This document shows positions 1,328 to 24,700 of a stretch of DNA of 64,000 bases, one piece after another. The position numbers and the translations under genes were made by a program. The stretch is taken from positions 3,277,675 through 3,341,674 of the forward strand of contig CAJINV010000001.1 in NCBI GenBank assembly GCA_905178155.1, read 5' to 3'. The notes below the pieces were generated by a model. The model saw only the letters and a program-made list of their open reading frames with translations. It was not told where the DNA came from and ran no database searches. Source of the DNA: Amoebophrya sp. A120 (lineage: Eukaryota > Protista > Dinoflagellata). Within the stretch, counting starts at the first letter, position 1. Each line of letters opens with the position of its first letter.

Positions 1328-4300
1328 TCAATAGTTCTGCGCAAATTTGATGGGCAGGGCGGCCGCGGAGTTCTGCTGGCGCGGGCAGAAGGGGCACTTG
1401 AAGGAGGCGCGCGCGTTTCTGCTCAGACGGTCCACGCACTCCCTGGACAGGACGTGGCCGCACGCGAGGAGGTAGGGAGTTCTGGTCAGCGAACGGTTGA
1501 CCGCTATCCAAGAAAAAAACTGTGTTAGTGTAAGTATCATTGGCTGACAGCATCACAAATTTGCTCTACATGACAGAGAAAACCTGTCATGCGTGGCTTG
1601 TAAGGGAAAACACACATGAAAAGAGAACTTCGTGGCTGTCTGGCATGACAGGTGTAAATCTGTTGCGTGTTCTGCATTACAGATTTACACTTACACAGTT
1701 TTTCTCTTGCATAACCGGACAAACGAAGTTGCTGGCGTAGGCGAATTCCGGAGGCGAATCCAGGGTGACCGGCAGCGTGTCGCCGACAACGGCCGTGGTC
1801 AGCGACCAGTTGCCCGTGGAGAGACCCTTGTCCTGGTCCACGCACCACTGGTGGTACTCCAGAATCTTCGGCAGGGCCTGCTGGCCCGCGTCCAGAATGA
1901 CCGACAGCAGCGATTTCTGCGACATCTGCTGCATCCGCAGATGGGGTCTGCTCACCAGCATCAGGTAGTGACTGCTCGGGTTCTATAGCAGTGCACAACT
2001 CCCCCTCCCCCTCGTTTGTCATGCAAAACCCCGAATCTAGTCGCTGTCATGTGGCACTGTTTGCATGACAAGTTCTGGCAGCCCAAATAGCACTACTCTC
2101 CAGTGTAAATAATCTGTCATGCAAAACCGGCACTCTGGCTGACGCTTGTATTGCCGTTCATGCTATACAAATGAGGCGGAGGGGGAGTTGTGCACTTTCA
2201 TAGGTTCAACAACGCGTCTTCCTCCGGTGGCTCATAAAAGGCTTGTTGTTCCTGTGTCAGAACTGATGTTGCGTCCGCTTTCGGATGGTGCGCTGCTTTA
2301 TTCAGCGGGCCCTTCCCTTTGGAATAATTCATCTCCGCTGCGGCATGGTCAGAAGCAATTTTACGTCTTGCTCCGGGGCCTCTGTGCCATGATTGCATCG
2401 TCCGGGAGGTGGGCCGCAGTTCCCTTCGGTGCTTCAGCGAAACGGTGGTGAAAACTTCTGACAAATCTTCTCCTCCTGCTCTCCCGAACGATTTGTCACC
2501 ACCCGGACTCGTGGGATCGTCCAGAGTGGAACCGGCGTAGGCTGCGGACAGGGGATTGTACCGCGGAAAAAGCTGCGCGTTCCGATTCAGATTCGCCCCG
2601 AAGCTTTGGAAAATCCCGCGCGGGCGCGCCGCTCTGGCCGCATTGTCTTTTTTTTCGTAGTGGGCCTCCCGGACGAGGTACGAAATCGCTTCCGCCTGCG
2701 CGTGCATCACCTCGGCGGATTTGCGCGCAGCGCTCGCGTCGCGGGAATCTACCATCTCGACGTCCTGCGATTGGTGGATTTCAATTTTACTTTCTTTGCT
2801 CTGATGTTTTATATTTTCATTGCAGTAGCCCTAGAAAACTACTGTAGGAGTTCAAGTCAATAACTATGTGTATGTCTTCAAAGAATCATACATAAAGTGC
2901 AGCTGCAGAGAAGATGAGGATGACCTCCACGACTGCATGAAAAGTATAGTGGCACCTCCTTGTTCCCCTCCACGGACTCAACAGACTCGCTTCGCCTTCG
3001 CCGCGTCGCTGACCGACTTCTCCGTCGATTTCTCCGCGGACGTACTCCCCTAGACGGCGCACTGGATACCGAGGAGACCGATCCGGAGCGGTTCCGACGC
3101 GGACTGCGGAGCGGGGAATGGTCTCGCTCAAGCCCAGCGTCCGCCCGCGCCCAGAGGTAGTAGGATGCCAGTTGCACGTCGGGAACAAGACCTTGCTGGG
3201 GGAAAAACTCTGTGTTGGACAAATAGGATGTTGCGGTGTCTTCTTGCATGACCCCCTCGTGCGGAGACCGCTCCGCCGAACTGTCAACTACGCTGAAGCT
3301 CGAGTTACTATCGTCGTCGGCTGGCTCATCATACTCGTCATAATCTAGCGCAAGGCCCGAGGTCGTTCTATGTTGCGAAGACGGCGGCGCTGCCCAGTAA
3401 TGAGCCAAGCACGCACGCCCACCGGGCCCCCAGTATGGCGGCTCGACGCTAGGCGGCGCAACTCCGCTCAGGTTCAGATTTCGTGTGAAAAACGCATCTT
3501 CCTCTTCGTCCTGCAGATACGCTGGCAAGGCTCTGGCGTGAAGATTCATGGAGGCGGAATTGTACGGACGCCGGAGCTGATGACGTGCTGGTCCCAAGCC
3601 CGGCGGACTGTAGTTTTCCTCTAGTACTTCTGAACCGGTGGCCGCACCATTGGCACAACCCTGCTCCAGCGGTTCATCTTCCGTCAAAATCCTTTCGACC
3701 GCAGCGACATGTCTGGCATAGTCGATGTCGATCCATTCCGGGTTCACTTCGCAGCGAGAAGAAAGGGCTTCCTCTGCGACATTCTTGTCGTCCGCTGCCC
3801 GTTGGTCTGTGCTCGATGTGCTATCGGTGTCATCGTCGTCGTCTTCGTCTCTGACGTTCAACACGTCGTAGTAGTCGTCGCTGGCTGGCACGAGTAGCGG
3901 AAAGGGGGTTATGTCCGGAAACATAGGTCTGGTCGGTGGCAGGAGCGACCTCGGTTCCACCTGCGACGGCCACGCGTGGTGCTGGTGGTCGACAGCATCT
4001 TCGTCCGTGCTGCGCCTACGCTTTAAACTCGGTGGCCACATCTCTCCCTGGGCGGGTTGATGCCCCTGACGACTGTTGTAGCCGTGGCCACCTCCGGGAG
4101 AGCGTGCGGAGCCCGTTCCGTTGTCTGCTCCACCGGAAGCGGAGGCGAGGAAAGAAGATGAACTCTTCTGGAGGTCACGACCATTGCGATTTTTGTGTCT
4201 TCCTAGTTGCGCCGCTGTGTTTCCGGTGCCTGGCTGCGCCGTGCGCTTGAAGGTGTTGTCGGGTGAAATTTTGATACCCGATTTCACCAAAACGTCATAA

Positions 4301-5850
4301 TGAAGCTCCACCATCTCATCATAGTTCACAAGCTGCTCTTGGGACAAAGCCGGCACTTCGGTGGTCAGGAAAAAAACCTTTCTCAGCAAATTCCTCAGCA
4401 CAGTGAGGCGCTTTTGAAGTGTTCTCTTCAACAGTACCTCCCCATTCGCTTGCAGCGTCGAAAGCGTCAGCAACCGCCCCACCTCCTGTCCGCGGCATTT
4501 CAGGAAGGGCGCGAAGCTTTTCTGCGCGAACTGAAACGCCTCGAGCCTCTGTGTGCTGAGAGACGCAGTAGAGGTTGAAGAGCCCGTGTTTGATGTTCTT
4601 GCAAAGCAAGACAACAGCATCTGCATGTACTTGCAGACTAACAGCTCGAACTCGAAACAGGACAGCAGATGCCCCTCGTGCGCTACGCTGGCCCAGCAGT
4701 TTTCGCTCCAGACCACTTCGCCCAAAATGTTCAGGCTTGTCTGAAACTGGTGCTTCACGTGGGCCAGATACCGGAACAATGGATCCAGCTTCTTCGAACC
4801 GAATAAATGCTCCTGTCGCTCGTCATTTTTGCCTGTCGCGGCCGAGGATGATGAATCCAAAACATCAGGATGGAGGTCGCAGCACTTGCACAGCTCCTTC
4901 AGCGTCTTCAGTGCGAAGGCCCAGGACGCGGAAATCACGTCGCCCACGCTGCTGCAGCGCACGGCGTCGCCACCCTCGTCCTCCTCAACCGCGAAGACCG
5001 CATTGCCGTAGCCCGCAAAAAAACCGCCTCCCGGTCCGGATTCGTGCGCTTGAAAAAACCGCTGGAAAGACGAGGGGTTGGTGAACAGAAAATGAAATTC
5101 ATCGATTTGATCTGCCGGTTTTTGTCGTGTAGTGGAATCTTCGTTCCAGACCTCTTCCTCGTCGTAATCTTCGTCATAATTTCCGTAAATGTCATTCCTA
5201 TAATTCTCCTGTGCCTGCTCTTCTTGTGTTCCATGCTGCCGCTGTCCACCGGCTCCCTCGTAAGTAGTGTCGCCGTTCTTATCCTTTTCTCCCGATTCCT
5301 CCGCACCGAAAGCCAAGCTGTGCCGGTAGTTTTCCCCGTCCTCGGCAAACGAGTCGTGAACCTGGCGCTCCACCTCTTGCCGAAACGTTTCGAACGACTC
5401 AAACAGGCCGCTTTGCAGCAGGTGTTCGCCGAGAAGCGTCGTGATGGCCGGCAACTCCCCGACGGACCGCAGTCTGGACACGCCGGCCTCCTCTGGCCCT
5501 TCGAAGTTCAGGATTGCGGGGTACGGGTGCTCCTTCCCCCCGTAGGGAAACGCAGCATTCACTTTCCGCTGGAGGGCCTGCACCATCTGCAGCCGCTGCT
5601 GGTGCGCGAGAATCGCGCGACTGGCCGGCTTCGTGCGTTTGGTGTGTTCCGCCTGCTGCGCGATCTCGTCTTTGAAGTTTTCGTTTGTCAGCCGCAGGCT
5701 GAGGGCCTGCAACTCTTCGATCAGCAGGTCGATTTGTCCGGTCACCACGTTCCCACGGTCCAGGTAGCCGTCAGCAACAATCTCAACCTGCTTCTCCACG
5801 CCGCCGTTCTGAATGACCACCCGCTTGGCGGCACCAGTCTGCGGATTCAT
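1328..5850 (-). CDS. RMND5: RMND5/Gid2-like GID/CTLH-complex RING E3 ligase (~1297 aa; exons 5850-2956, 2764-2203, 1978-1714, 1499-1328)
   Basis: LisH-like TLLGEHLLQSGLFESFETFRQE, CTLH-like FEFELLVCKYMQML, CRA-like EAFQFAQKSFAPF, SLLSVILDAGQQALPKI, and degenerate RING FVCPV...PYLLACGHVLSRECVDRL...FKCPFCP. One GT-AG intron (2765-2955) and two introners. Exon sum is 3894 nt, in frame. Confidence 0.85.
1505..1713. mobile_element. Introner A (TIR element forming a non-canonical intron in RMND5)
   Basis: ~29-bp TIR: tatccaagaaaaaaactgtgttagtgtaa versus rc tatgcaagagaaaaactgtgtaagtgtaa. Flanking duplication accgc (1500-1504) / accgg (1714-1718). Excision restores CPVNRSLTRTPYLLACGH. Confidence 0.85.
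1984..2202. mobile_element. Introner B (different TIR type) in RMND5
   Basis: TIR tatagcagtgcacaactccccctccccctcgtttgt versus rc tatgaaagtgcacaactccccctccgcctcatttgt. Perfect ggttc duplication (1979-1983, 2203-2207). Excision gives in-frame LLNPSSHYLM. Confidence 0.88.
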
Positions 5851-6448
5851 CCTGTTGCCACTCGGGAGCCCTGGAGATTCACTTTAACTGGAGGAAACGG
5901 AGACCATGGTGTCCGTCGTATCTCAATAAAATGAAAGTGGATGGTTGAAAAAAATTTGCTGTGGAAAGCCGGCGTAGAATTTTACTTCCAAAAGGAAAGA
6001 TCGATAGAAAATCTCATGTTGAAGAACTTGCAGGAGCACAACAACTCACAACATCTGCATCTGACTCCAGACGTATGTTCCGGGAAAGGTAAGACTGTCT
6101 CTCTCTCACAGGAAAAAAAAGTCCTCATTCATAAACTGCACCTGGCCCTGGCGCCGTACTACCGTAGTCCAAAAAATAGAGATCTCATTGCAACAAGCAA
6201 ACGGATCGGTTCTATTCGTGAGATCGTCCATCGCGAGCGACACACACAATATCTGGATCGAGGACCCCGAAAGAAGACCATGAAGAACGTAGGACGAAAA
6301 CACACTATGGACACGCCCTGTCCTGCTTTCTGCGCGTCGTCCCCGTATGTACTTATGTAAAGATCAGGCCACTATCCATATGCTGGCGAGTCATTTCTTC
6401 TCCAGCGTTTTGACTCTGTTTTGTTCCCTGGTATCATGGTTTTCACTT

Positions 6449-8170
6449 TTATTTATCCTCTGCTTCTTGTCTGTTCTCCTCATCTCCGCTTTTGCGCGAG
6501 AGATCATTTTCCTCTGGTTCCGTGAGGCTCTGCAGTAATTTCCCAACCTGCCGGCTTGCGCTCGTCACCTCGCCATGCACAGTGTCTAAAAACGCATGCA
6601 GGCCCTTCCCGAGGTCAGGAAATCCAGCCGCTGCAAATTTATCGACAAACACCTCATCCAGCCAAGATTTCAAGCGCTCTTTTAACTGAACCTCGATCCA
6701 ATGCGGCACAAACGTGCGCCTAACGGAAGGCCGCTCGTCTCGAAAACGGTACAGAGTCGGCTCCGGGTGTAATGGATCAGGTGGCGGAAACCGGGAATTA
6801 GGGTTGGCCTTGAAATTTCGTTCCTTGTACCTCTGACGGATGACACTCTTGCAACCCTCATACACTTTTTCTAAGCGGGAGCGGGAATTCCCGAGACGCT
6901 CGAAAACAAGACGCGCCACCGGTAGCGACGGGTCCTCAGGAGGAAAAACAGGGAACTCGCAGAAGTTTCTTGCCGTCCGATTTGCAAATTGCGCGAAACG
7001 AAACCTGTCCCAGTCAGTGACTTGATCCAGTGCGGGGCCGATGACAAAACGGAGCAGCGCCTCCTTCGCATCGCTGCGGGAGTCTGCAAGCTCGAAGAGA
7101 ATGCCTTCGCAGTACCGCTGCCGCACTTCTGAGAAGCCACTCACTCCGCTGGGCGGTAGCCATCCGTGCTTGATCCACTCTGTGTCACTTAGGCGCAAGA
7201 CTACGGCCAACAACGGCCATGCTCGGCTATGGATTTTGAACTCCGTGCTCGCCTTGCTGTAGACGACATACTGAAACTTTCTCGAGTCGGGCTGATCAGC
7301 ATATTGCGGTGGAAGCAGCGCTTGCACTTCGGCACCCACGTCGGTCCTCCTTGTAGTTCCGGCGTCGTTGTAGTACGTCCGCTCCCGCTGACGCACGAGC
7401 CGCTCCGGCCCATACGTTTCTTTGAATTCGTCCGAGTTCCCGGGGAGCAAAAAATAGCGGTAAAACCTGTCATACAACCAGTTCTCCGCTGCGGCGATAC
7501 TTTTGATCTTCTCGGGTTCCTGTGGCACGCGCCGCGGTAGTACCTCCTGTTCGGACACCGAATACTCGTCGTCGCTGCTTTCCTCGACCTCCATCAGGTT
7601 GCCGGACGGCCCCTCGACTTTGACCATGAAGCGATAGACAGCCTCTCCGTCCGCACTGAACACCAGTTCCTCACTATGTGCAAAAAAAGCGGAAGCATCG
7701 GACGAGGCCGGGAGCTGCGGCGGGTCGCCCTGCTCGCCTCCATCACCATCTTCAAGTGGCGAATGATTTTCATCTGCGCTGTCTCTGTCTTCCTCTGCAG
7801 GCTCGTCTTCGCCTGCCAACCAGAGCAGCCGCGAAGACGGCGGGCAAAGTTCGTCGCTTTCGCTCGTGTAAAAGGTTGGCACAAATAACTGGGCCAGGTC
7901 TGCAACACACTTAACCTTTTCGGTGTCAATACAGAACTTTTTTTCCTCACCGGACAGCCCTTTGCGCAGAATCACGACTTTCTTGTCCACTTTGGAGGCA
8001 CTTGCGGTTGGAACAGCCGGATTCTTGTCGGCCGCTTGAGAGCTGGCAGTAGCGCTTCCGTCTTTTGCTGTCGACTTCTTTGTCTTCAAACAGGCCTCGA
8101 CTGACGGCTCTTCCGATTGCTGCAGCTCCACCTCCTCGCCCGGCGGCAGTTCACTTGTTAGGGAGGCCAT
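6449..8170 (-). CDS. Hypothetical protein, tandem paralog 1, with putative N-terminal ubiquitin-like domain
   Basis: Intronless ORF; likely ATG at 8170 (MASLTSELP). Homologous along its length to 8727-10280. VILRKGLSGEEKKFCID...PPSSRLLW resembles a beta-grasp/Ubl pattern. Confidence 0.8.
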   Translation of the reverse strand: MASLTSELPPGEEVELQQSEEPSVEACLKTKKSTAKDGSATASSQAADKNPAVPTASASKVDKKVVILRKGLSGEEKKFCIDTEKVKCVADLAQLFVPTFYTSESDELCPPSSRLLWLAGEDEPAEEDRDSADENHSPLEDGDGGEQGDPPQLPASSDASAFFAHSEELVFSADGEAVYRFMVKVEGPSGNLMEVEESSDDEYSVSEQEVLPRRVPQEPEKIKSIAAAENWLYDRFYRYFLLPGNSDEFKETYGPERLVRQRERTYYNDAGTTRRTDVGAEVQALLPPQYADQPDSRKFQYVVYSKASTEFKIHSRAWPLLAVVLRLSDTEWIKHGWLPPSGVSGFSEVRQRYCEGILFELADSRSDAKEALLRFVIGPALDQVTDWDRFRFAQFANRTARNFCEFPVFPPEDPSLPVARLVFERLGNSRSRLEKVYEGCKSVIRQRYKERNFKANPNSRFPPPDPLHPEPTLYRFRDERPSVRRTFVPHWIEVQLKERLKSWLDEVFVDKFAAAGFPDLGKGLHAFLDTVHGEVTSASRQVGKLLQSLTEPEENDLSRKSGDEENRQEAEDK

Positions 8171-8726: not shown

Positions 8727-10280
8727 TTAATGTGCTTCGTCCTCCAGCCTCTGCAGTTTCTCTTCCCACATGGATCTACTCGAGGGGGTTCCTTCGGGCT
8801 CTGTGAGCTTCTCCTGCAATTGCCTCACCTGCCGGTTTACTGTCTTCACATCGTCATGCACCGTTTCCAGAAACGCACTCAAATCTCGACCAAGGTCGGG
8901 GAATCCAGCCACCGCCAATTTGTCAACAAAAAACCCGACCCAGGTTTTTAGGTGTTGATGTAAGTCTTCTTCCCAAGGCTTGAAACTCCATTTCTTGTAT
9001 TCATGGCGAATAGCACTCTTGCAGCCTGCACAAATTTTTTCTAAGCGGGAGCGAGACTGTCCGACACGCTCCAGTAGCAAGGCGGCCGTGCTCGTGCCCC
9101 GAATCGGAGAAAACAGTACTGGAATGGCCCGCTTTGCAAACTCCGCGAAAGGAAACCCATCCCAGTTAGTCACCTGATCCAGTGCGGGAACAATGACACG
9201 ACGCAGAATGTCCGAATCGCGGTTGTAGTTTGCTAGCTCGAGAATAATTTTTTCGCAGTACTGCTGGCGCTGCTCCTTTCCGGAACTAATTCCCCCAGGT
9301 GGCAGCCACCCGTGCTTAATCCACTCTGTGTCATTTAGACTCAGCACTGCGGCCAACAACCTCCATGCCGGAAGATGCCTTTCGAAGTCACGGGCCAAGA
9401 GTGGGTAAGCGACACACTCGAACTTTCTCTGGTGGGGCCGATTGCTGTACTGCAACGGAAGAAGTGCCTGGACTACAGCTCCAATCGAACGCCTGTCCTG
9501 TTGCATTCCGTCGCAATCCGGATAATACGCACGCGGCGGATCCCGCCCGTATGTTTGTTCGAATTCGTCCGAGTCTTCGCGGAGCAAAAAGTAGCGGTAA
9601 AGCCTGTCATACAACCAATTCTCTGCTGCGGCGATATTTTTGATCTGCTCGGGTTTCTGTGGGACGCGCCGCGGTGGTACCTCCTGTTCGGACACCGAAT
9701 ACTCGTCGTCGCTGCTTTCCTCGACCTCCATCAGGTTGCCGGACGGCCCCTCGACTTTGACCATGAAGCGATAGACAGCCTCTCCGTCCGCATTGAACAC
9801 CAGTTCGTCACTGTGTGCGAAAAAAGCGGAAGCATCGGACGCGGCAGGGAGCTGCGGCGGGTCGCCCTGCTCGCCTCCATCACCATCTTCAAGTGGCGCA
9901 TGATTTTCTGTGCTGTCTCTGTCTTCTGCAGGCTCGTCTTCGCCTGCCAACCAGAGCAGCCGCGACGACGGCGGGCAAAGTTCGTCGGTTTCCTGTGTGT
10001 AAAACTGTGGCACAAACTGGGCCAGGTCCGCGAAACACTTCACTTTCTCAGCGTCAACGCAAAACTTTTTTTCTTCACCAGAGAAAGCCTTGCGCAAAAG
10101 TACTACGAAGCGTTTCTCTATGAAGATCTCGGAGGTGGAACGATTTGCAATTCCAGCAGCCGCTTCCGTTTGCGGGCTGGCGGAAGCGCTTCCGTTCTTC
10201 TTCGAACTGGCTTCGACTGACCGCTCTTCCGATTGCTGCTGCTTCGCCTCGCCCGCCGGCAGTTCGCTGAGGGAGGCCAT
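8727..10280 (-). CDS. Hypothetical protein, tandem paralog 2, with putative N-terminal ubiquitin-like domain
   Basis: Likely ATG at 10280 (MASLSELP). Shares motifs such as AAAENWLYDR.YRYFLL, DTEWIKHGWLPP and AGFPDLG with paralog 1. The upstream non-coding DNA is also similar. Confidence 0.8.
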   Translation of the reverse strand: MASLSELPAGEAKQQQSEERSVEASSKKNGSASASPQTEAAAGIANRSTSEIFIEKRFVVLLRKAFSGEEKKFCVDAEKVKCFADLAQFVPQFYTQETDELCPPSSRLLWLAGEDEPAEDRDSTENHAPLEDGDGGEQGDPPQLPAASDASAFFAHSDELVFNADGEAVYRFMVKVEGPSGNLMEVEESSDDEYSVSEQEVPPRRVPQKPEQIKNIAAAENWLYDRLYRYFLLREDSDEFEQTYGRDPPRAYYPDCDGMQQDRRSIGAVVQALLPLQYSNRPHQRKFECVAYPLLARDFERHLPAWRLLAAVLSLNDTEWIKHGWLPPGGISSGKEQRQQYCEKIILELANYNRDSDILRRVIVPALDQVTNWDGFPFAEFAKRAIPVLFSPIRGTSTAALLLERVGQSRSRLEKICAGCKSAIRHEYKKWSFKPWEEDLHQHLKTWVGFFVDKLAVAGFPDLGRDLSAFLETVHDDVKTVNRQVRQLQEKLTEPEGTPSSRSMWEEKLQRLEDEAH

Positions 10281-10964: not shown

Positions 10965-13900
10965 TTAACCACCTCCAGCACATTTCTTGTCTTCACCGAC
11001 AGCCATCAGTGCTCCCATTTTCTTGATGAAGGTCGGCGCCGTAATGCGCGCTGATCCTTTGTGCTCCCGCACGAGCGTGGTTGAGCCGCCCCTGCCGTGA
11101 AACACCATGTGGGAACCGTGGGTCAGGATGCGTACTCCGCCGCCCTGCCCGAATTCGAGCATGCCAGCGCGCCGCAGAAGATTTGCGCCTCGAATGACCC
11201 GCCGAAACTTCATGCGTTTGCGCGAGATCAGCTCCAGCGCCTCCTGCAGCCGTTCTTCCGCAGTCGGCTCCGCGGCCGACGACGAAGCACTGTCCAGCTC
11301 CGCGAGCTTCTTCTGTTCCGATCGCGACAGGATTCGTGGCACAAAGCGCTTGGATCTACTGCCCTCGTGTCTACTCCAGTTGTTCTTTTCCCCCGTCCTG
11401 GACGACCACTCTGCCTGGATCAATTTCGCCCGCCTCCGCTGCTCTGCCAAAACTTTCGGATCACGCAACCACTGTAAAGTTTTTTTTTCCTCTTCGTTCC
11501 TCCCGTCGGTCGTCGCTGCCAGTTCTGCAATCTTCGTATCTTCGAGGTCTTCGAGCATCAGCACGGCAAGTTGTGCCACTTGGGACTGATCCAGGTCATC
11601 TTGCGAGATTCCATTTGCAACAGAAGACCAAAAAAATTCTTCGACCGCGAGATCGGCGATCGTCAAGGCGGGCGGCGGCAGGAATGGGATGCAGCCCTGC
11701 TCTTTTCCCCGCATCGTCTCGGTGATGTATCGAATCACCGCGGGATCGTCGGCCCGCATGCAGCTGTTTGCCAGTGCTGCGTACCCCCCTGCTTCTCCGG
11801 GACTGAATCCGCCCAGAAGCGCCTTCTTCCCATTCGCGCATGCATTGCAAATATGTCTGCAAGGGTGCAAGGTCTGTCATGCATCTCGTAGAGCAGGAAC
11901 ACAGTGTCGAATGAACCCACGAGCATCACAGATTGCGCAAGGGCTTCTTGATGCCTGTTCCGCATCAGAAATTTGCCTTTTGCGTGGCAAGATGGCACTT
12001 GCGGCTCATCATGCAACACAGATACAGATTTTTGGTTTGTACGATTCTGTTGATTCAGTAGATTTAGCATGACAACTTGCATTCTCCCACACGACCCAAA
12101 CTACATCTTTGCAGTGGATACCGCGTACAAATCGACTAGCCAGTCAGCGTCCGCCTGCTGTTCCGCGGAAACCGCGCTCGAACCGCTGAAGAAGATCTGT
12201 GCTGCCGACGGTACGTCGATCCTTCCTCTCCCGGACAGCTCAAGTCCGCCGATGATGCGGTCTAGCTCCTTGCGCACGTCAATAATCCTGTAGTCCATGA
12301 ACGCACTCCGTTCCACTTCGAGGGCCTCGATCATATTGCCGTGCTGGTGGACGACAAGCCTGCGCTTCGTCGGACTAGCGCCCGGACTGTCCGGATACGT
12401 CGCGAAGGGGCGCCCCGCAACTATATTGGGTTCGCAATGCCAGTGGTTAGCCGGATCAAGCAGCACGACGCGCGCCGAAGTCAAGCGGTAAGTCGTAGGC
12501 CCTGCGTCGCTCTGGGTCCTCGTCCCTCCGGCCCCCGCGGACGTGGCGCTTTTCCCGGGGCACAACGGCGCGAAATCGTCGAACAGGTGCAGAATGAACT
12601 GCCGATCGTCGCGGTTGTTTTCCCTCACGAAGCCCGAGATAATGGAAACGGGCTCGCGGCGGCCGATCTTTGCTGGGTAGACCTGTGCGAACAATGCTGC
12701 ACCGAAGGCCTGCACCGCCTCGGCAGTGTACGGAATTCTTTCTTTACCTATCAACTGCAAATATGTCTGGTGTTCTGGAGGATGGAGGCTTTGTCATGCA
12801 TTGCGAGAAACACTCTCAGCTCTGTCATGCACGTGACCCAAACACGCGTCTTTACTGTCACGCAAAAGGAAAATAAACACAGACTGGTACTCATAATGGA
12901 CAACTCCTAATAGCAACTCAAACACAAGTCATACTTGGCCGTCAATTTTTGAAGCTTCCTAGTAATGCCAGCCAGCCGGCAATACAAAAGCTTGCTCACG
13001 CACACGCAGACATCTTTGCAATGCATATTCCCATCTTGATTGCAATTCTGTTCGATCTGCACCAGGTACGCCAGCTGCACAAACGCGAAAGGGTAGTCGG
13101 CAGACAGCGCCACGACGCCGGTCTTTCTATCCACGGTCGCCACTCTTCGGCGGTACACTGCGGCCACAGTCTCCATCACCCGCGCGGAGGCAAGGAACGG
13201 AGCGTGCTCATCGATGCAATTATAGTTCCGGATGTGCTTGCGCAGAGTTTCAAGGTATTTGTTCCGCGGGCTCGCAAACACGTCGCACACCAACTTGCAC
13301 CTCGCCTGTACCCGATCAAATAAAGGTCCGTCCTCGGACAAAAATTTTCGAGCGTGCTCGATGCTTTTTTTCAGTTTTTCTCTCGGCTTTCCCCGCACGC
13401 AGTTGGTGTCGTCGGGAAGCTTTGCAGCGAAGAGCTGCTCGGCAGGTGAGAGGTACTGCTTCACGTCGATACGATCCAGGGCCTCCCGGGCGATCGCCAA
13501 CTTCTGAACAAGCGAGGCTGCCTCAAGTCCACACGCTTGCGCGGACTCATCCTGCGCAGCTTTCGGGTCTTTTTCGGTCTGCTTTTTCTGCGATTTGCTG
13601 GCGCGATCTTTTCCCACAAGCACGCGACAGCCTGGGCGTGGCTTCCCCATAACTGTCAGGCCTTCGCTGGCGCCATCCGTGTCCGACTCGGGGAGTTCTT
13701 CAATGGCGCAGGGCCCACCCGATCGGGAAAACGCGGGCACACTGTTGCCAGCACGCTGGCCAACCGTCCCGGCCGCCGCGGGCGCCGCCGCAAGGGCGTC
13801 AAAGCAATCTATTGTGGTCACTGGCGGCCTCTCCAGCGGCGCCCCGCCGCGCTTTTCCAGCAACATTTTCCGCAGATGCGCACCTGTGGGATACGGTTCT

Positions 13901-14496
13901 TGCAAAGACTGTCGCGGGCCGTGCCTGTCCTCGGCTTCAAGCATCCGTCGCGGCCAGGCTTGGATTGCGTGCCTCCGCCGGTCGAACCCAACATCGCGCA
14001 GCGTCGTGTCGGTGTCATAGTGGTCGAATGCTACTCGGTGGCCGGGGACGGCGGGGACATCAACTAAATACCCAGTGCACAGCTGCGGCTCCGTGGCAAA
14101 GCTTTTCGGCCCCTCATCAATCGGAACGAGCGCGAACCCTGCAAAGGCGAAGGGGGACAGCAAGCACTCAAAGAGGTACGTGAGGGACTCGCCGGTATGA
14201 TCCAGCAACCCTGGAATGTGAAGAATTAGGGTCCTCCCTTCCTGATCAAATTTTCGATGTACTCCCGACCTGGCTTCCCTTCTCGACAGGCAGTGGTGCT
14301 TTGAACAAAAAACGACCACCGCATCCCCGGACTCTTCGAGCTTTTGCTGAATCGAGGCCCCCTTTGACAGTTCACGAGCATCAACATGATCCAATGCCGC
14401 GTTTACTTCGCGAATGCGCGCTACTGGGAAATCGGTAAAGCCGTTTGCGGCAAGTAAGTCCAATTGGCTGAGGGTGAAGTTCATCCTTGACGGCAT
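10965..14496 (-). CDS. ~986-aa protein with C-terminal HicA-like (mRNA interferase) domain; exons 14496-13028, 12743-12121, 11833-10965
   Basis: Three ORF-track fragments join in frame (2961 nt) after removing two introners. The C-terminus MKFRRVI..LLRRAG...GSHMVFHGRGGSTTLVREHKGSARITAPTF matches the HicA pattern GSHxxFxH...T.VPxHxG..L..GT. Confidence 0.75.
11839..12120. mobile_element. Introner C (degenerate member of the TATCAAATGCAAA-ATGTCTG family)
   Basis: Ends catgcattgcaaatatgt / rc tatccactgcaaagatgt. Duplication tcgcg (11834-11838) / ccgcg (12121-12125). Excision gives in-frame DLYA(D/N)GKKALL. Confidence 0.8.
12749..13027. mobile_element. Introner D (same TIR family as C, E, F)
   Basis: Ends tatcaactgcaaatatgtctg / rc tatgcattgcaaagatgtctg. 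Duplication ttacc (12744-12748) / ttccc (13028-13032). Excision gives in-frame NQDGKERIPY. Confidence 0.85.
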
Positions 14497-15530: not shown

Positions 15531-18500
15531 CTACACGTCTACTACTGCTGCACCGTTATTAGCTCCACATCTTGCTTGCGGCCGGAACTGGTACTGCGCA
15601 CTACCAGGTCCTCCACCTCCTCGCAGATTATTTGGTGACTTTGATCTGGTCATCCCGGGCGATGGCTGCACAGGACCTCCGTTATTGTTATTCCCGTTCC
15701 CCACAGCGTTTTTCAATCCGTAGGGGATGACGTAGCCCTGCTGTTCCCGCATTTCCAGCGACTTTTTGTCCCGCTCGCTGTTCCGCTGTATCCTTTCCCG
15801 GTTGGCCTCCTCCCGGCGCGCCAGCGCGTTTTTCACTTGCTCCACCCGCTTCTGCTCCTTCAGCGCCATGGTGAAGTGCTCGGGGTCCATCGATTTCGCC
15901 TTGTTCAAGTAGTGCTGTTTCACGTCAAACAACTCGCCTTTCGAACTCGACAGCAAATCATTGCGCTTGCTATTCTTCTTCCGCAACACCGCCTCGCTCA
16001 TCGCCGCGATCTCCAAATCCAAAAACCACACGTCGTTGAAATTCACACCGCAGTGCGTGCCCGCGAACAGCACCACGCGCATGATCCGCTCCTGCGTGGG
16101 GTGCGGGATTACTTGCAGGGCGTGGCCGGCCCGCGGGGGGAGCAGTAAAACGTCCTGGAGGTAGTCCAAGTTCGGGTCGTCTTGCGGAGAAGAAGAACAA
16201 CCTCCGGCATGACCATTATTCCCGGTGTTGTTCTCGTTCGCCTTGAAGAACATGGTCTTGTGGTCTTGCTTCCCACCGTCCGGCGCGAGCTCGTACCAGG
16301 ATTGGGTCACCTCGTTGTAGATTGCGATCTGCCGCGTGGCGTCGAATAAGCATCTCCCGGTGATGTGCGAGGACTCTAGAAACCCGCCGTGGAGTAGATG
16401 CAAATGCGCGGGGACCAAGGTGACCATCCCGTGGAAGCTCCGCCCCCACGGCGGCGCGACCGGCTCCATAGTCGGGACGTGCAATTTCACCGAGGAAGGC
16501 TCGATGAAGCCCGCCTGCGTCACCGCGTCTGGGTGGGGACAGTAGTCGGGGAACTTGAAGAACTGGATACTTTTGTCTTTCCTTCCGCCGAACATCAGCA
16601 CCTGTCCGTTCGCCAACTGCGTCAGGCTGTGGCCCGCGCGCGCGTCGAACCGCGCCCCGCCGAGCATCCAGACCCGGTTGTGACAGTCGAAAAAATCTAT
16701 GTCCGAGCCGTACTTCCGATGGGTCCCGGTTTCCCCCCTGCCAACGACCATCAAGACATCCTGGTCGACCAGCGTGACCGCGTGGCTGGTGTGCGGCGGC
16801 GGCCACGTGGCGTCGTCCTGGTGGTACCGGCCCGGGTTCTTGTTCACCACCTCCTCCCAAATGTGTCTCTTCGTGTCGTAAAACCACACAGCGTTACACC
16901 GGCGGAACCCGTTCCACCCACCGAAGAGGACCAAGTAGTGCTTCCAGGACACCATGCTGTGCTTGCACAGCGGCCCGGGGTAGGTGTTGGGCGGGTGCTT
17001 GTGCTGCGTCCACTGTTGAGTGGTCAAATGCAGTTCCCACAAATCTTCAAAGGGGATGACCCCGGCGTTCGTGTCGTGCGTGCCGCCATAGATCCACAAG
17101 CGTTCCCCAACCACCGCCGAGCCGCCGTAGGCGCGCGCCGCCGGGCGGTACTTGCCGTAGCAGGGGACCGGCCGACCGCGGAACTTCGGTTGTAGTTCTA
17201 CTTCGGGCGACGTTGATGTGATGTTATTCTCCTGTTCCTTGTTCACCGGGATCTCCGGAGAAGCGGCTCTTTTCGCCGGCCTGGCGGCAATGTCACCCGT
17301 GGTTTTCAATACCGGCGAGGACATCCGCAGCTGGTTCGGCTTCGTGGTTTTGCTCGAACTCGTTGGCGGTGTCGAGCTCGCAGTCGCTGCAGTTCTGCCG
17401 GAGAGGTCGTCTTGCTGCGAAGATGAAGGTAGGTTTTTTACTATCAGTCTCTCGGAGGAGGCGAGAAGACTAGTTTTGGCTTTATTCGACGCTGCTACCG
17501 CGCCCACCGAACCGGACAAAGCGTCTGGCTTGGTAGAAGTTTCAGTGGCTCCTGGTTTCAACATCGTCAAGATTTTATTGCTACCTCCGCTCGAAGATTT
17601 TGCACTCGTGGTCCTAATTGTCTGTCTATTTGCGTTCGCCGCGGTAACTTTCTGCTGGTCTATCATCACGGCGTCGGGTTCTATCGGAGAGGAGACTGCT
17701 TGACTATCGGCGTTCGCACCAGGCGAAGCCGCCGCGACAGACTGACTCCTTACTTCGCTAGAACTACCCGCGGCCTTATTCCGTCTATTTCGGCGCGACC
17801 GCGGAACTGGCTGCAGCAGTACTACCTCACGCTCTTTGTTCTCAGCGCTAACATCCACAGCATCTACGGTGTTACTATTTCCCTTTGTAGTTGAAGACGC
17901 CACCATTGTCGGACTGCGCAGAGGAGACGGGGACGAGTCTGCACCGGACAGCGTAGTTGCGGTAGTAGGCTCCACGATGGAAAGATGCTTCGTGGCTTTC
18001 AACACAGAGGAAGTAGTTCCATGGCCTGTTGTTTCTTTCGTGTTGTTCGTCGTTGCGGTTGTTGTACTCGGACTACTTACGGCAGCATTCATCAACGCGG
18101 TCGGTGACTTCGAATCAATCGCTGCGACCTTCGGCGTCCCCGCGGCAGTTGTTGACTTCGTCAGGTCTCGCACCGGCGTGCTCGCAACCGGGATAGTTGT
18201 ATTTTTGTGGTCCTCAACTACTTTCTGGTCCTGTGTAGTTGGTAGCGATGTTGATTCCGTCCCAACAGACGCCTTCGGAAGCTGCTGAAACAAGCGCACC
18301 GCGCCCTGCAACTTCGCAAGCGGTCCAACTCCTAGCGAGGTCGTGACTGGCTTCAGGACCATTGCGCCCGCATGATTAGGGGGGCTCTGTGAGGACTGCG
18401 GTTCTACCACGCGCTGTTGGGGCTGAAACGTCGTCATCTGTGGCTGCAGCAACGAGCGTGGCTGCTGGAGAAAAGCGGCGCGTGGAGACAACAGAGGGGG

Positions 18501-20729
18501 CTTAGAAGGAGCCACGACTACCTGTGCGGCAGGCTGAGTAGTAGATCCAGGCTGCGTACTATTAGCACCACCCGCACCTGGCCCGCTGCTGGACATCTTC
18601 TGAGGTTGGGCCGTAGCTAGTGAAGACCCGACGACCCCACCAGCTGCGCCTCCGCCCGTCTGCAACAGCGGCCCGGCGCTCGTTCCCAACGGCCCGGCTG
18701 TGTTTGCAAGGCGCATTTGTAAAAATTTCGCGGTGGCTTGGTTCTGCGGTGGCTGAGCCATTTGCAGCCTTGTTTTCTGTTGCACAAGGAAGCCGACAGG
18801 TTGATTACCCCCACCGGGCGGTGACGCGTTCGGAGAACCGCTTGCATTCGAGATCGCAATGGTGTCCTGCGAACTGGTCTGTGCGCCGAGCGAAGACGGC
18901 GAGGCAGCGGTCGTTGGGCGCGAAATCCCGATTGTCCCGGGTGCCGTGTCCTGATGCTGATGATCTCTCTGTCGTGCTTCAGAAAATTCGTCTCGCCCAT
19001 CTCCTAGTGCAGCCCCAGATGCCCTGCTTACGGCCGCCAAATCCGGGCGCCCGATTTCGCGACTCTTACGCGCCGGCAGTGATCTTTTGTTTACGTGCTG
19101 TTCTATTCCAGAGGCCCTCGTAGCCTCTGAGAAAGAACTACGCGGCTGCTGCTCAGTAGTTGGTGAAGACGATAATTTCTCCTCCCCGGCACTGTTTCTC
19201 GGCACCTGTTCCCAGACGGACGGCCTCGCCGTCGGCGCGCCGCCACTGAGCATGCTCTGGTGCTTGGGGATCTTGTTGTCCCATGTGGGCTTGCGGTCCT
19301 TGCGGCTGACGGCAGCGGGGTCCTGGTTGCTCTCCCGCAACCCCCATGAGGCGGCTGGATCACCACGACCCGGGTTCGTCTCTGCCATTGCAGCGCTGCG
19401 GCCCCTGCATTGAAGGAGGTAATTTAGGCTTTGTTCTTTATGGTCGTACAAGCATGATCAGGAAAGGCGGGGCAATACTTTCATTCACACAGCACCAAGA
19501 CATGGATGTTGGCAAGAATCCTGAATATACAGGGGAAACCTCAACTTGGAGTAAACGCTAACTAACTAGTGTAGGTAAACGAGACGCACAAGTACTAATG
19601 TACATCAAAAACGAAATTTCGAACGATCAATTTGTTCGGATGAACAAACTTACTTACTTGAAAATCCTGGGGTATGTATTGAGGCGGCAAAAAATGCGAA
19701 TAGGGGTGGATGGGTTTTGGCTAGTGTTGCCTGTCAATTTGCGGCACACAAAAAAGAGAATCAATAGACTGCGTGAATCAAGAATCGTATATCAATGCGG
19801 GACGAAAGGCGCGACCGGACGGTGTTTCGATGGCACGAAAATTTAAACTTGTTGCACGATTAGTACCGAGTTTCAGTTTTTTTCTTTATGTGAGTGCTCA
19901 CCGAGGGCTTGCAGCAGTTGCAGACCGAAACTTGCAAATAATTTCACGACTATTTCGTCAAGTCATACCTTTCTAAGTCATACTTTTCTGGTTTCTGCAG
20001 GGAGACCAGTCCTTCTACTGAAAGAATTTCATAGCCTGACTACTACAGATTGCTCATACATCTTCAATCAAAACTATACCTGGCAGACGACGTCGCTCTG
20101 CTGCTCCCCCCCATTGCCGCCACCGTAGCCCGACCTTTCGTCCCACCTTGCACTTCTCCTGGGACAACTTTTTGAATATTAAAGGGATTACAGCGTGTCG
20201 TGGTCGACGATGAACCCGCAGCCACTACTACCACCGCGGGTCCCACTGATCTTTTCCTGCTCGCAAGAGGCGGCTTGTGTGCCGACGCAGAATTCGTCGC
20301 GTTTCCATGTTCGCTCTGATACTGATTCCCCCGCAACAACTGCGGCTTGACGTTTTCCTTGTCCGACGTTTGCAGCTGGGGCTGTTGCATTTGCACCATT
20401 CCGTTTTCATTTCTGCTAACCCTCGCAGGTTGCTGTTGTTCTGCGACCAGTTGTTCCGGTCTGCGAAAATTTCCAATGGGCGACATGAAATTGCTCCGTG
20501 CGGTTCGCGTCCGCTGTCTCGATGGCGGTGTCATGGGACGGTCATCTTTTGACGTGGTTGCGGTCGCACCAGCAGCTCTTCTCCCGGCCGGATTGCTTTC
20601 GCGGCGAGGCGAAGTGCGCACCAAACTGCATCCGCGGGGGGAGGCAAACTTGCTTGCAGGCACAGTGCGAGAGGAAAACTTCCGAGCGGTTGAAGTAGAA
20701 CCCGGGTCAGCCGGTGTGGTTGTCGGCAT
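15531..20729 (-). CDS. Kelch-repeat protein, KLHDC9-like, with long S/T/P/Q-rich N-terminus (probable exons 20729-20080 and 19404-15531, ~1507 aa)
   Basis: Kelch blades LWIYGG, LVLFGGWNGFRRCNAVWFYDTKRHIW, SHAVTLVDQDVLMVVGR..THRKYGS and ARAGHSLTQLANGQVLMFGG. The upstream ORF joins via a phase-2 GT (20079) to AG (19405); this 5' exon assignment is less certain. Confidence 0.8.
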
Positions 20730-21771: not shown

Positions 21772-24700
21772 CTACCTGATCTCCATGGTCTCAGCCTTGG
21801 CTTTTAATTTTCTCATTTTGGTGTGCCGCGACATCAATCGCGCCCGGTTCTCGTTCGTTTCCAGGTTTTCCAAGCGATCCTTCTTTTCCTCTTCGTACAC
21901 CGGGCGCCAATCCTCGTAGATCCTTTTCAGCTCCTGCACGTACAGATCGTGGTACCGATCCACTTCCTCCTGCGTCGGGTTCTCGACCAACGGACAATCG
22001 ATTGGGTTGCCGACCACCGACCGGATGGGGGTGCGGAACGGGAAAATCCCCACGTTCAAGCCGAACACGCGGTGCAGCAACCCGCCGGAAAGAGCGCGGC
22101 CGACGACTAGGGGTAGAGCAAAACCCATGATTTTCTGCAGCTTGTCCTGGATCTTCTTCGCCGTGCCCGTGAGCTGGATGCTCCCGAACAGGTCGGTCTC
22201 GCCGAAACTGTATCAAATGCAAATATGTCTGGGTCTGGGAGATTCCGGGATTTGTGATGCTAGTCTGGCATGACTCTGAGCTCTGTATTGCGTGGCCGCG
22301 AATAGCTCATGCTCCCTGTTATGCAAAAACGCACTTTCTCATGCGGAATTCGCAACTCAGAACCATGAAAAAAGCCTGTCATGCTTGGCAGCTCCTTGCA
22401 GTGAGCTCACTATTCCCTTCCTTGCATCACAAGTTTCCAGACCCAGACATTTTTGCATTTGGTAAACTGTAAACGGGCACGAGACTGGCGCCGTTCTTCA
22501 TCGCGTACTTCACGAAGCCCTTACGCTGCCCGAGAATCTGGATTTTTTGGGATGCGTTTGCAGTGCTCCGTCCTGGTGGGCGGGCAAACTATGATGCGAG
22601 CAAAAAAAGTCGTTGTAAATTATGCCTCGCATTTTCTACCCGCAGTACTTACACGTCGAACTTTGTGCTACACATTTTCGAACTTTTTAACGAAACAAAC
22701 GACCTGAAAAAAAATCCCAAATACCAGAACATTCGTCCCAACGCCGCTCTCCAGCGACTCCTTTGCGCCTCCGGGAACTAGTGCTATCGACTTCCCGCGC
22801 TGCAGATTGTTGCAGATGGACTCAGCACTGACATCCTGCACGCCTAGCGCGAGCAGGAAATCCCGCCAGAAGGGGATCTTAAACTGGATCTGCATGGTCA
22901 GCAATCGGACATCGATCCCCGGGAAGAGCGCGTCAAAACCAGTGGCGTTCGTCGAGAAGTTCAGTAACGCCCCGATGGACAAGACCCCGTGCGGGTGGTA
23001 GCCGAAGACGTACCGCTTTTCCGGATCCAGTTTTCGTGTGCGGGTCAACTTCACGGGAAAATACATGGCAGCGTGGCGGTAGATTCTCCTACGCCGCATG
23101 GAGGGGCAAAACCGATCGTACCTCCTCGGGCAGAAGAACATAGTGAGTAACGACTTTCCGATGACGGTGAACAAACCGAGAGCGGTCTTCACCGTGTCGA
23201 CGAAAATATTTTCCCTCTTTTTGATTCCCAAATCGGCGAAGATCGAGTCCTGCTTGCTCCACATCGAAGATCCGAGACTGGATAGCATCGCTGTCTTGGT
23301 CACAGGTGTTTTCTTGCTGTAGTTCTCCGAGTCGTTATCCGTAGCTGCTGCTGCTCCTGGGGTCGTACTACCAGTCCTTTCCGTTATTATTTGCAGCCGC
23401 TCGGCGACGGTAGAAGATGTGACCTTTTCATCAGGCCTTGTTGCGCCTCCACCTGCGGCTGTTTGTCTCAATGTCAACGCCGGTGTGGTACTAACCGGGG
23501 TGGACGCGGCCGTTGACATGGAAACGGTCGACAAAGACGGATCCATCGAAGTTTTTGTGCAGCTCGTTTTATTCGTCTCCTCATAAGATGAAGACCTCTC
23601 ACACGTCGACCCTGGGCTCATCTTCGCGGTCGTCGCGTCTTCGAATTCATCCACCACACTGTCGCTTTCATTATCGTTACCATTTGGTTGTTCCACCCCT
23701 TCGTTTTGTTCACCAGTGCGACCACCACTACCTGAAGATTGTGGACTCCTGGCAATGACCGTGTATTCATCCCGGTCCTCCGGGTCCACATCATCGTCCA
23801 CATCATCGTCCGGGGAGTTTGACGTCCGGCTGCTCAACTTTTCGTCATCCGCGTGGAGGACTAATTCTTGCATTTTCTCCTCCTTACTAGTCTCGTATTT
23901 CCCCTTGGACGCGCCAGAATCGAAAAGCAGATACCAGTATCAAATGTAAAAATGTCTGGGTCTGGAAGAATGCAACTTGTGATGCTAAATTTGGACTCCA
24001 AAAAAATCTGTATTGCATGAGCAGCAAAGATAGTGCAATTTTTGCTACGCGGAGAGGGCATTTGTCATGCGGAATAGGCATCGCGAAGCCCTCAAAAAAT
24101 CTGTGACGCTAGGGCATGCATCACAGACATCATGGCCCAGGCAAAACATGCATGACAAGTCTCAGAATCTTCCAGACCCAGACATTTTTACATTTGATAA
24201 CCAGGTGACATACGCAATGTACAGCATGCGGACGGGACTCACGACAGTGCTCCCATATTCGGAGCCGAAGAGCCTGAAGAAAATCGCGATTATTTAGTAT
24301 TTGCTTTTCATTTTGCGATGAAGGGTTTTGTACTATAGCGTAGGCCCCCATACACATGACACGAGCAGTCTGCATTTGAAAACTTTTTCTTTGTTATACC
24401 TCTCATCCGCGTAGAGCAGGCACCACACGTTGAAGGAAAAGGCCATATTGAAGACCGCGAGGATGAAAACGAGAATCGACCGCATCTGCATCCGCTCGAG
24501 GCTGTCCCACTGGCCCACCCGGCCGGGCCACAGCAAGACGGCGAAATACCCCTGCACGATGACGGTGCAAATTTTTCCTACTATGCCGAACAGCCCCGAA
24601 AAAATATCGTAGTTCGCGACCGCGGAGAGCAAGAGGAAAAAGTACAGAATTCGCTTCTTCACCGTCGTGTGCGACTCCTTGCGGCGGAAGGTCGCGCAGA

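Follow-up and report, generated by a model that had tools for sequence, protein, structure and literature searches.

Background

Descriptions of HicA present a small toxin of prokaryotes that is dependent on HicB; HicA-like C-termini also occur on some large fungal proteins. In HicAB systems, as set out in the available sections of PMC11594946, the toxin is a single domain of 50-100 residues that needs no ribosome to cleave RNA and falls silent once HicB covers the histidine; a role in phage defence has also been proposed. Gly22 and His24, both required for toxicity, lie at the beta1-beta2 turn, with a second histidine nearby in the beta3-alpha2 loop (accessible part of PMC3969222). HicA also forms the tip of bacterial polymorphic toxins, namely the S8-PTS BetaH toxins and an RHS toxin, where, in the excerpts of PMC9424270 at hand, it is one of 16 interchangeable tips, is about 50% identical to the HicA of toxin-antitoxin systems and is accompanied by immunity genes.

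Among eukaryotic proteins, the Crinkler or CR plan combines a ubiquitin-like (Ubl) header, no signal peptide and a C-terminal nuclease of prokaryotic origin, with expansion of paralogs in parasites. The tips listed in the available portions of a review (PMC5289972) are of REase, HNH, LK-nuclease, kinase, peptidase and GTPase types, mostly DNA-directed, and 'HicA' is not mentioned in those portions. A literature search of titles and abstracts found no report of a eukaryotic HicA; subscription papers lay mostly outside its scope, including the supplements of Zhang et al. 2016, which may hold HicA among CR tips. There is likewise no eukaryotic case in the available sections of the HicAB review (PMC11594946) or of PMC2701414, 'HicA' is absent from the accessible text of PMC3482391, and six gene identifiers of Amoebophrya sp. 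A120 are absent from the searched supplements of PMC9478091, PMC7793755 and PMC6176090 and from the accessible text of PMC6176090, according to which little is known of Amoebophrya effectors.

Here we describe a divergent HicA-like domain with a fixed place at the C-terminus of an unannotated, multi-copy protist protein family with putative RNA-contig support.

A spliced gene with two introner introns

The window (the whole stretch of 64,000 nucleotides of Amoebophrya sp. A120 DNA that was analysed) had been described in a first-pass annotation as holding a bacterial-type HicA domain at the C-terminus of a large eukaryotic protein. This is borne out: the HicA-like peptide lies on the minus strand at 11213-10965, runs to a stop codon and closes a gene of three exons, built as follows.

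13028..14496, minus strand: exon 1, with the ATG at 14496; residues 1-489; drawn from the open reading frame, putative RNA contigs and the translation
12744..13027, minus strand: intron 1, 284 nt; a non-canonical introner whose terminal inverted repeat is 21 nt long (81% complementary) and whose direct repeat measures 2 nt
12122..12743, minus strand: exon 2, carrying part of the alpha/beta core (residues about 465-745)
11835..12121, minus strand: intron 2, 287 nt; an introner of high copy number that shares the terminal-repeat motif of intron 1 and has a direct repeat of 4 nt
10965..11834, minus strand: exon 3, residues 698-986 and the stop codon

Joined, the exons (14496-13028, 12743-12122 and 11834-10965) give a frame of 2961 nt whose translation is identical to the 986-residue protein P0001, that is, CAD7923660.1 ('unnamed protein product [Amoebophrya sp. 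A120]'), the database entry with 100% identity to the query peptide. Since the exons translate exactly into P0001, some 900 residues do precede the HicA-like domain, which begins at residue 905, as had been supposed. The further suggestion that the protein would stay invisible without introner-aware gene building does not hold, as NCBI already lists it both as CAD7923660.1 and, in the same cluster, as the 987-residue model GSA120T00012806001.1, with neither a name nor a domain on record.

The joint that skips intron 2 (11835-12121) is present in putative RNA contigs from four of four runs, and that skipping intron 1 (12744-13027) in three of four; all four runs come from one sample, and their RNA nature is presumed, none being recorded as RNA. 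One contig of run X5 covers the stretch unspliced at a depth of 43, with values of 105-419 in the bins of intron 1 and 3462-6217 in those of intron 2. Both introns carry the marks of introners: they are non-canonical, have a terminal inverted repeat and a direct repeat, and are repeated in the genome. In this they are like the introners described from Amoebophrya, for which the available text of PMC7789003 gives direct repeats of 3-5 nt, although the 2-nt repeat of intron 1 falls below that range. Further intron-like stretches are found in the window at 22211-22457 and 23937-24199, one of them with the same terminal-repeat motif. The gene for the 986-residue protein is therefore genuine and spliced, and databases already list it, unannotated.

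Evidence for a HicA-like tip

The C-terminal tip follows a charged linker, as the first-pass annotation had stated, and has three features of interest.

10965..11213, minus strand: HicA-like domain, residues 905-986, predicted alpha-beta-beta-beta-alpha
11109..11117, minus strand: G937-S938-H939 (GSH) at the beta1-beta2 turn, with H939 the predicted catalytic histidine
11061..11063, minus strand: H955 in the beta3-alpha2 loop, the counterpart of the second histidine in many HicA proteins

The AlphaFold2 model of the tip (mean pLDDT 81) consists of a helix (12-24), three strands (36-41, 44-49 and 52-57) and a second helix (68-82). Compared with 48,161 solved chains, the model places HicA structures at ranks 1, 2, 4, 7 and 25 (Z 5.0, 4.2, 4.0, 3.8 and 3.2), although Z values around 5 are in the common range for this comparison. 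The best match is 6g26 (Z 5.0, rmsd 3.0, 57 residues aligned), followed among HicA chains by 5yrz (4.2), 1whz (4.0) and 4p78 (3.8); no canonical dsRBD protein is among the best 50 matches listed. An Atlas structure search puts HicA clusters first and third with scores of 0.79-0.81, to be read at lead level only, and Foldseek with the tip model returned nothing at E <= 0.001. GSH occupies the beta1-beta2 turn and H955 lies in the beta3-alpha2 loop, the places described for the HicA active site in the accessible part of PMC3969222.

Sequence profiles point the same way. A profile of the family aligned with 51 bacterial HicA sequences gives a probability of 83%, a pairwise E of 9e-6 and a score of 31, against 10.2 +/- 1.9 (maximum 15.2) for 60 column shuffles and 9.8 for the reversed profile. 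In 201 bacterial genomes the family profile has a single match, at E 0.0014, to a hicA gene that immediately follows a hicB-like gene; at that E value per genome a chance match is possible, but a chance match landing on hicA is unlikely. The HMM check that had been proposed at first pass gave a divided answer: the window's own domain has no match in Pfam, NCBIfam or PHROGs, but HicA_toxin is the Pfam family matched by most member domains, albeit weakly (6 of 23; best E 0.00057), and no member scanned reaches the Pfam cut-off of 27 bits, the best full-protein score being 19.2 bits. HicA in the PDB was found neither by sequence nor by family profile, and the profile does not match E. coli HicA taken alone, which lacks the GSH form. 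A tblastn search of the tip against plasmids gave only noise (E 3-8), and PADLOC reported nothing relevant on 28 members.

When set beside the HicA of HicAB systems (PF07927, COG1724; 6G26, 5YRZ, 1WHZ, 4P78, 6HPB), the tip shares the predicted fold, the GSH turn, the second histidine and a basic charge (17 K+R versus 4 D+E in residues 900-980). It differs in an additional invariant histidine (H943), in an arginine at the proline of the HicA motif VPxH and in a longer loop after helix 1. A HicA toxin is moreover a domain standing alone (available sections of PMC11594946), whereas the tip ends a eukaryotic protein of roughly 800-1250 residues, spliced in the case of P0001. Unlike HicAB systems, the family lies below the Pfam cut-off and is without hicB, either adjacent (in the window) or fused. 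A HicB profile built from 124 bacterial sequences and run at E <= 1 found nothing in 984 six-frame segments of the window, in line with the earlier remark that no HicB-like reading frame is visible, and nothing in the family proteins, though a very divergent or distant HicB could escape such a profile. We file the tip as HicA-like rather than as a member of a HicAB system because it is neither small nor single-domain, falls below the Pfam cut-off and has no HicB in the window or the proteins.

The lines of evidence are individually weak and converge, so that descent from HicA, as read from sequence and predicted structure, is quite probable. The first-pass annotation's observation of a HicA-like tip is confirmed, and its reading of a HicA/dsRBD-like fold, with a GSH histidine and a later histidine in HicA-equivalent places, is supported at the level of prediction.

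A family in Amoebophrya and Durusdinium

HMMER searches of 1.84 billion representatives gave 32 matches at E <= 0.001, of which 30, P0001 included, were kept; P0005 and P0031 were dropped as repeat-protein false positives. Seven members belong to A120 (P0001, P0012, P0015, P0026, P0028, P0029 and P0032), four to Amoebophrya AT5.2 (P0002, P0017, P0021 and P0027) and one, P0003, to Durusdinium trenchii, while the remaining 18 of the 30 are unnamed. The distribution in dinoflagellates, which the first-pass annotation had singled out for checking, thus takes in these three, and named members were found only in Amoebophrya and Durusdinium. The A120 members P0032, P0015 and P0012 have gene numbers 10797, 10799 and 10800, which suggests a tandem cluster elsewhere in the genome. 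Pattern scans, which detect close relatives only, found none in prokaryotic genomes, viral contigs or metagenome contigs, and a near-length search with the domain alignment added no members. Searches with the core region returned only the protein itself or nothing; because one of them missed even known homologs, the core search is insensitive.

Conservation is concentrated in the tip. In an alignment of 28 proteins, which leaves out P0023, P0025 and the two false matches, G937, S938, H943 and T950 are invariant (28/28), H939 is shared by 27 of 28 proteins and H955 by 27 of 27, a pattern that makes the feature more than chance. The exception is P0022, where arginine replaces the catalytic histidine and the second histidine is missing, and which on this evidence is likely an inactive copy. 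Of the 30 representatives, 29 carry the motif at a distance of 41-78 residues from the C-terminus. Between P0001 and its AT5.2 ortholog, 59 of 77 positions are identical in the tip and 108 of 249 in the core; the corresponding values against Durusdinium are 44 of 75 and 57 of 221. The tip is the most conserved segment of the protein.

P0017 and P0028 have a different N-terminal half, their BLAST match to P0001 starting only at residue 749. Since they match from that point only, and since the helical module ahead of the tip is present in all homologs of sufficient length, module plus tip form, by sequence comparison, the smallest conserved unit, to which a changeable N-terminal half is joined. 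A quick tree (used for strong pairs only; it includes non-representative duplicates and omits eight short fragments, P0004 and the P0010 duplicates) contains three A120/AT5.2 pairs with support of 98-100: P0001/P0002, P0028/P0017 and P0029/P0027. Several paralogs are therefore older than the split between A120 and AT5.2, and many are divergent and sit on long branches. Two Durusdinium models, P0004 and P0037, continue beyond the point inside the tip where their match to P0003 ends, and P0037, of 2869 residues, also matches reverse transcriptase and RCC1; both are probably read-through gene models or disrupted copies.

The family resembles the bacterial polymorphic toxins in placing HicA at the C-terminal end of a large protein, but where those exchange their tips (excerpts of PMC9424270), here the tip is fixed and divergent, with no immunity gene in the window and no secretion signal in P0001. 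The 'polymorphic-toxin-like' reading offered at first pass is disfavoured because the tip is the most conserved and invariable part, and what varies, in two paralogs, is the N-terminal half. All homologs were found via the tip, however, and swapped tips could therefore have escaped.

The rest of the protein

A structure prediction for the full protein, also suggested at first pass, has a pLDDT of 71 and arranges four parts ahead of the HicA-like tip: a header, a helix bundle, the core and an acidic module.

13927..14235, minus strand: predicted ubiquitin-like (beta-grasp) header, residues about 88-190
13333..13566, minus strand: residues 311-388, a bundle of three helices in a generic GAT/BAG/MIT-like arrangement; Z reaches 9.4, as helical bundles commonly do
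11391..11690, minus strand: acidic helical module, residues 746-845

The header region is common to eight other long members. It is likely a ubiquitin-like domain, judging from its predicted structure: the model aligns with the Ubl domain of TBCE (1wjn; Z 5.4, rmsd 4.3, 81 residues) and with SAP18 (Z 4.5, rmsd 3.9, 82 residues). The pattern that closes it resembles the last strands of ubiquitin. Confidence in the header model is modest, with several stretches below pLDDT 50, and the header has no Pfam match. Full-length structure searches are dominated by the helix bundle; among the matches listed by full-length Foldseek, 8 of 47 are beta-grasp proteins, none of them significant. The alpha/beta core (residues about 465-745) is confidently modelled, and no fold could be assigned to it (Atlas TM about 0.3). 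The helical module ahead of the tip (18 D+E versus 11 K+R in residues 756-845) is present in P0017 and P0028 as in every other homolog of sufficient length. P0001 shows neither a hydrophobic N-terminus nor a signal-peptide-like stretch, and any hydrophobic N-terminus among the ten other long members checked is modest at most.

A proposed latent RNase of biological conflict and its alternatives

To judge from the retained motifs and the predicted fold, the tip is probably an active RNase. As to its use, the reading that we tentatively prefer is a latent, switchable, intracellular RNA-destroying effector of biological conflict, serving in antiviral or suicide defence. A prokaryotic hicA would have been fused to the helical module in a protist ancestor, and H939, aided by H955, would cut RNA independently of the ribosome in the manner of HicA. 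Some other brake would be needed because the active site is kept, the gene is transcribed and no HicB is seen; the active site would then be covered from within the same protein, and the acidic helical module, a natural candidate brake for a basic tip, is the most plausible mask. A complex prediction for residues 392-848 with 888-980, made without an alignment and with the partner fold uncertain, returned 'no answer'. The more variable N-terminal part might sense a trigger, or the header might direct the protein to a processing step that releases the tip, and the outcome would be a shut-off of translation. The absence of a hydrophobic N-terminus in P0001 and its modest strength at most in the ten other members checked, the presence of the family in the photosymbiont Durusdinium, the divergent paralogs with a different N-terminal half (P0017 and P0028) and the phage-defence role proposed for HicA (PMC11594946) speak for such an intracellular conflict role. 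Against it, RNA contigs in four of four runs and the kept A120/AT5.2 pairs also fit housekeeping, paralogs are commoner in the parasite than in Durusdinium, as an exported effector would lead one to expect, and no single test for HicA is decisive.

A eukaryotic family that keeps the HicA active site would be a further instance of eukaryotes recruiting a nuclease from a toxin-antitoxin system, and would illustrate how a toxin can be retained without its antitoxin. To our knowledge, the antiviral and suicide defences of dinoflagellates and the effectors of Amoebophrya are poorly known, and the 80-residue domain is a named candidate for work on either.

The main alternative is export in the manner of Crinklers, in which the Ubl header would route the protein into the host dinoflagellate or a competitor and the tip would degrade host RNA. 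We regard this as somewhat unlikely. A predicted Ubl header (for which the Z values of 5.4 and 4.5 are hints), a prokaryotic nuclease tip and the lack of a signal peptide fit the CR plan as given in the available portions of PMC5289972, and the seven A120 representatives, three with near-consecutive gene numbers, and four from AT5.2 contrast with one Durusdinium cluster. On the other side, the family differs from Crinklers in the core of unassigned fold between header and tip and in lacking LxLFLAK, which is absent from the header alignment, although CR headers without it are also described (PMC5289972, same portions). The want of a Pfam match and the modest model weaken the case for the header itself, the tips are constant, unlike those of CR proteins (with a search biased toward the tip), and ortholog pairs are retained across strains. 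A so far undescribed effector class of eukaryotes built around HicA, with a Ubl header, a core and an acidic brake replacing HicB, expanded in Amoebophrya and shutting down the RNA metabolism of the host dinoflagellate, is a possibility we hold at the same low level; if true, such effectors would be the RNase counterpart of Crinklers in a parasite with few known effectors.

A domesticated housekeeping nuclease, acting in RNA processing or quality control after loss of any role as a weapon, would account for the strong conservation of the tip, for the orthologs kept between A120 and AT5.2 and for the transcript contigs (putative RNA) in all four runs. We consider it unlikely, given the patchy record of the family, with named members in two genera among 1.84 billion representatives, its many divergent, long-branched paralogs and one copy, P0022, that has lost both H939 and H955. 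Less probable again is a HicA/dsRBD-fold tip that binds RNA or, through its three conserved histidines, a metal, and does not cut. Likeness of fold alone shows no function, and the invariant H943 is foreign to HicA, as is the replacement of the VPxH proline; yet the glycine and histidine of GSH that HicA needs for toxicity (accessible part of PMC3969222) persist in 28 and 27, respectively, of the 28 proteins aligned, and the best 50 structural matches listed are free of canonical dsRBD proteins. That an unrelated small alpha/beta domain bears GSH by chance is very improbable, for although all scores are sub-threshold or middling, five different methods rank HicA first or near first and the motifs stand at the correct structural places.

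Neighbourhood in the window

The following genes of the window border or approach the HicA-like gene.

2881-5883, minus strand: flanking gene, a frame of 1001 residues with a weak CTLH match (E 0.004)
6452-8170 and 8730-10280, minus strand: a tandem pair of intronless paralogs directly downstream, with 58% identity and a central stretch that is almost the same in both
15534-19457, minus strand: flanking gene for a Kelch-repeat protein of 1308 residues (Pfam scan)

No adjacent immunity gene was found, the neighbours of the HicA-like gene being the Kelch protein and the two unannotated paralogs. The latter have no Pfam match, and the family header does not match the N-termini of either. Both are covered by RNA contigs and are net acidic, with N-termini that look beta-grasp-like by eye. 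At 7762-7791, RNA contigs from two runs carry two substitutions and two 3-nt deletions, which are likely due to contigs of the neighbouring paralog being misplaced on this copy.
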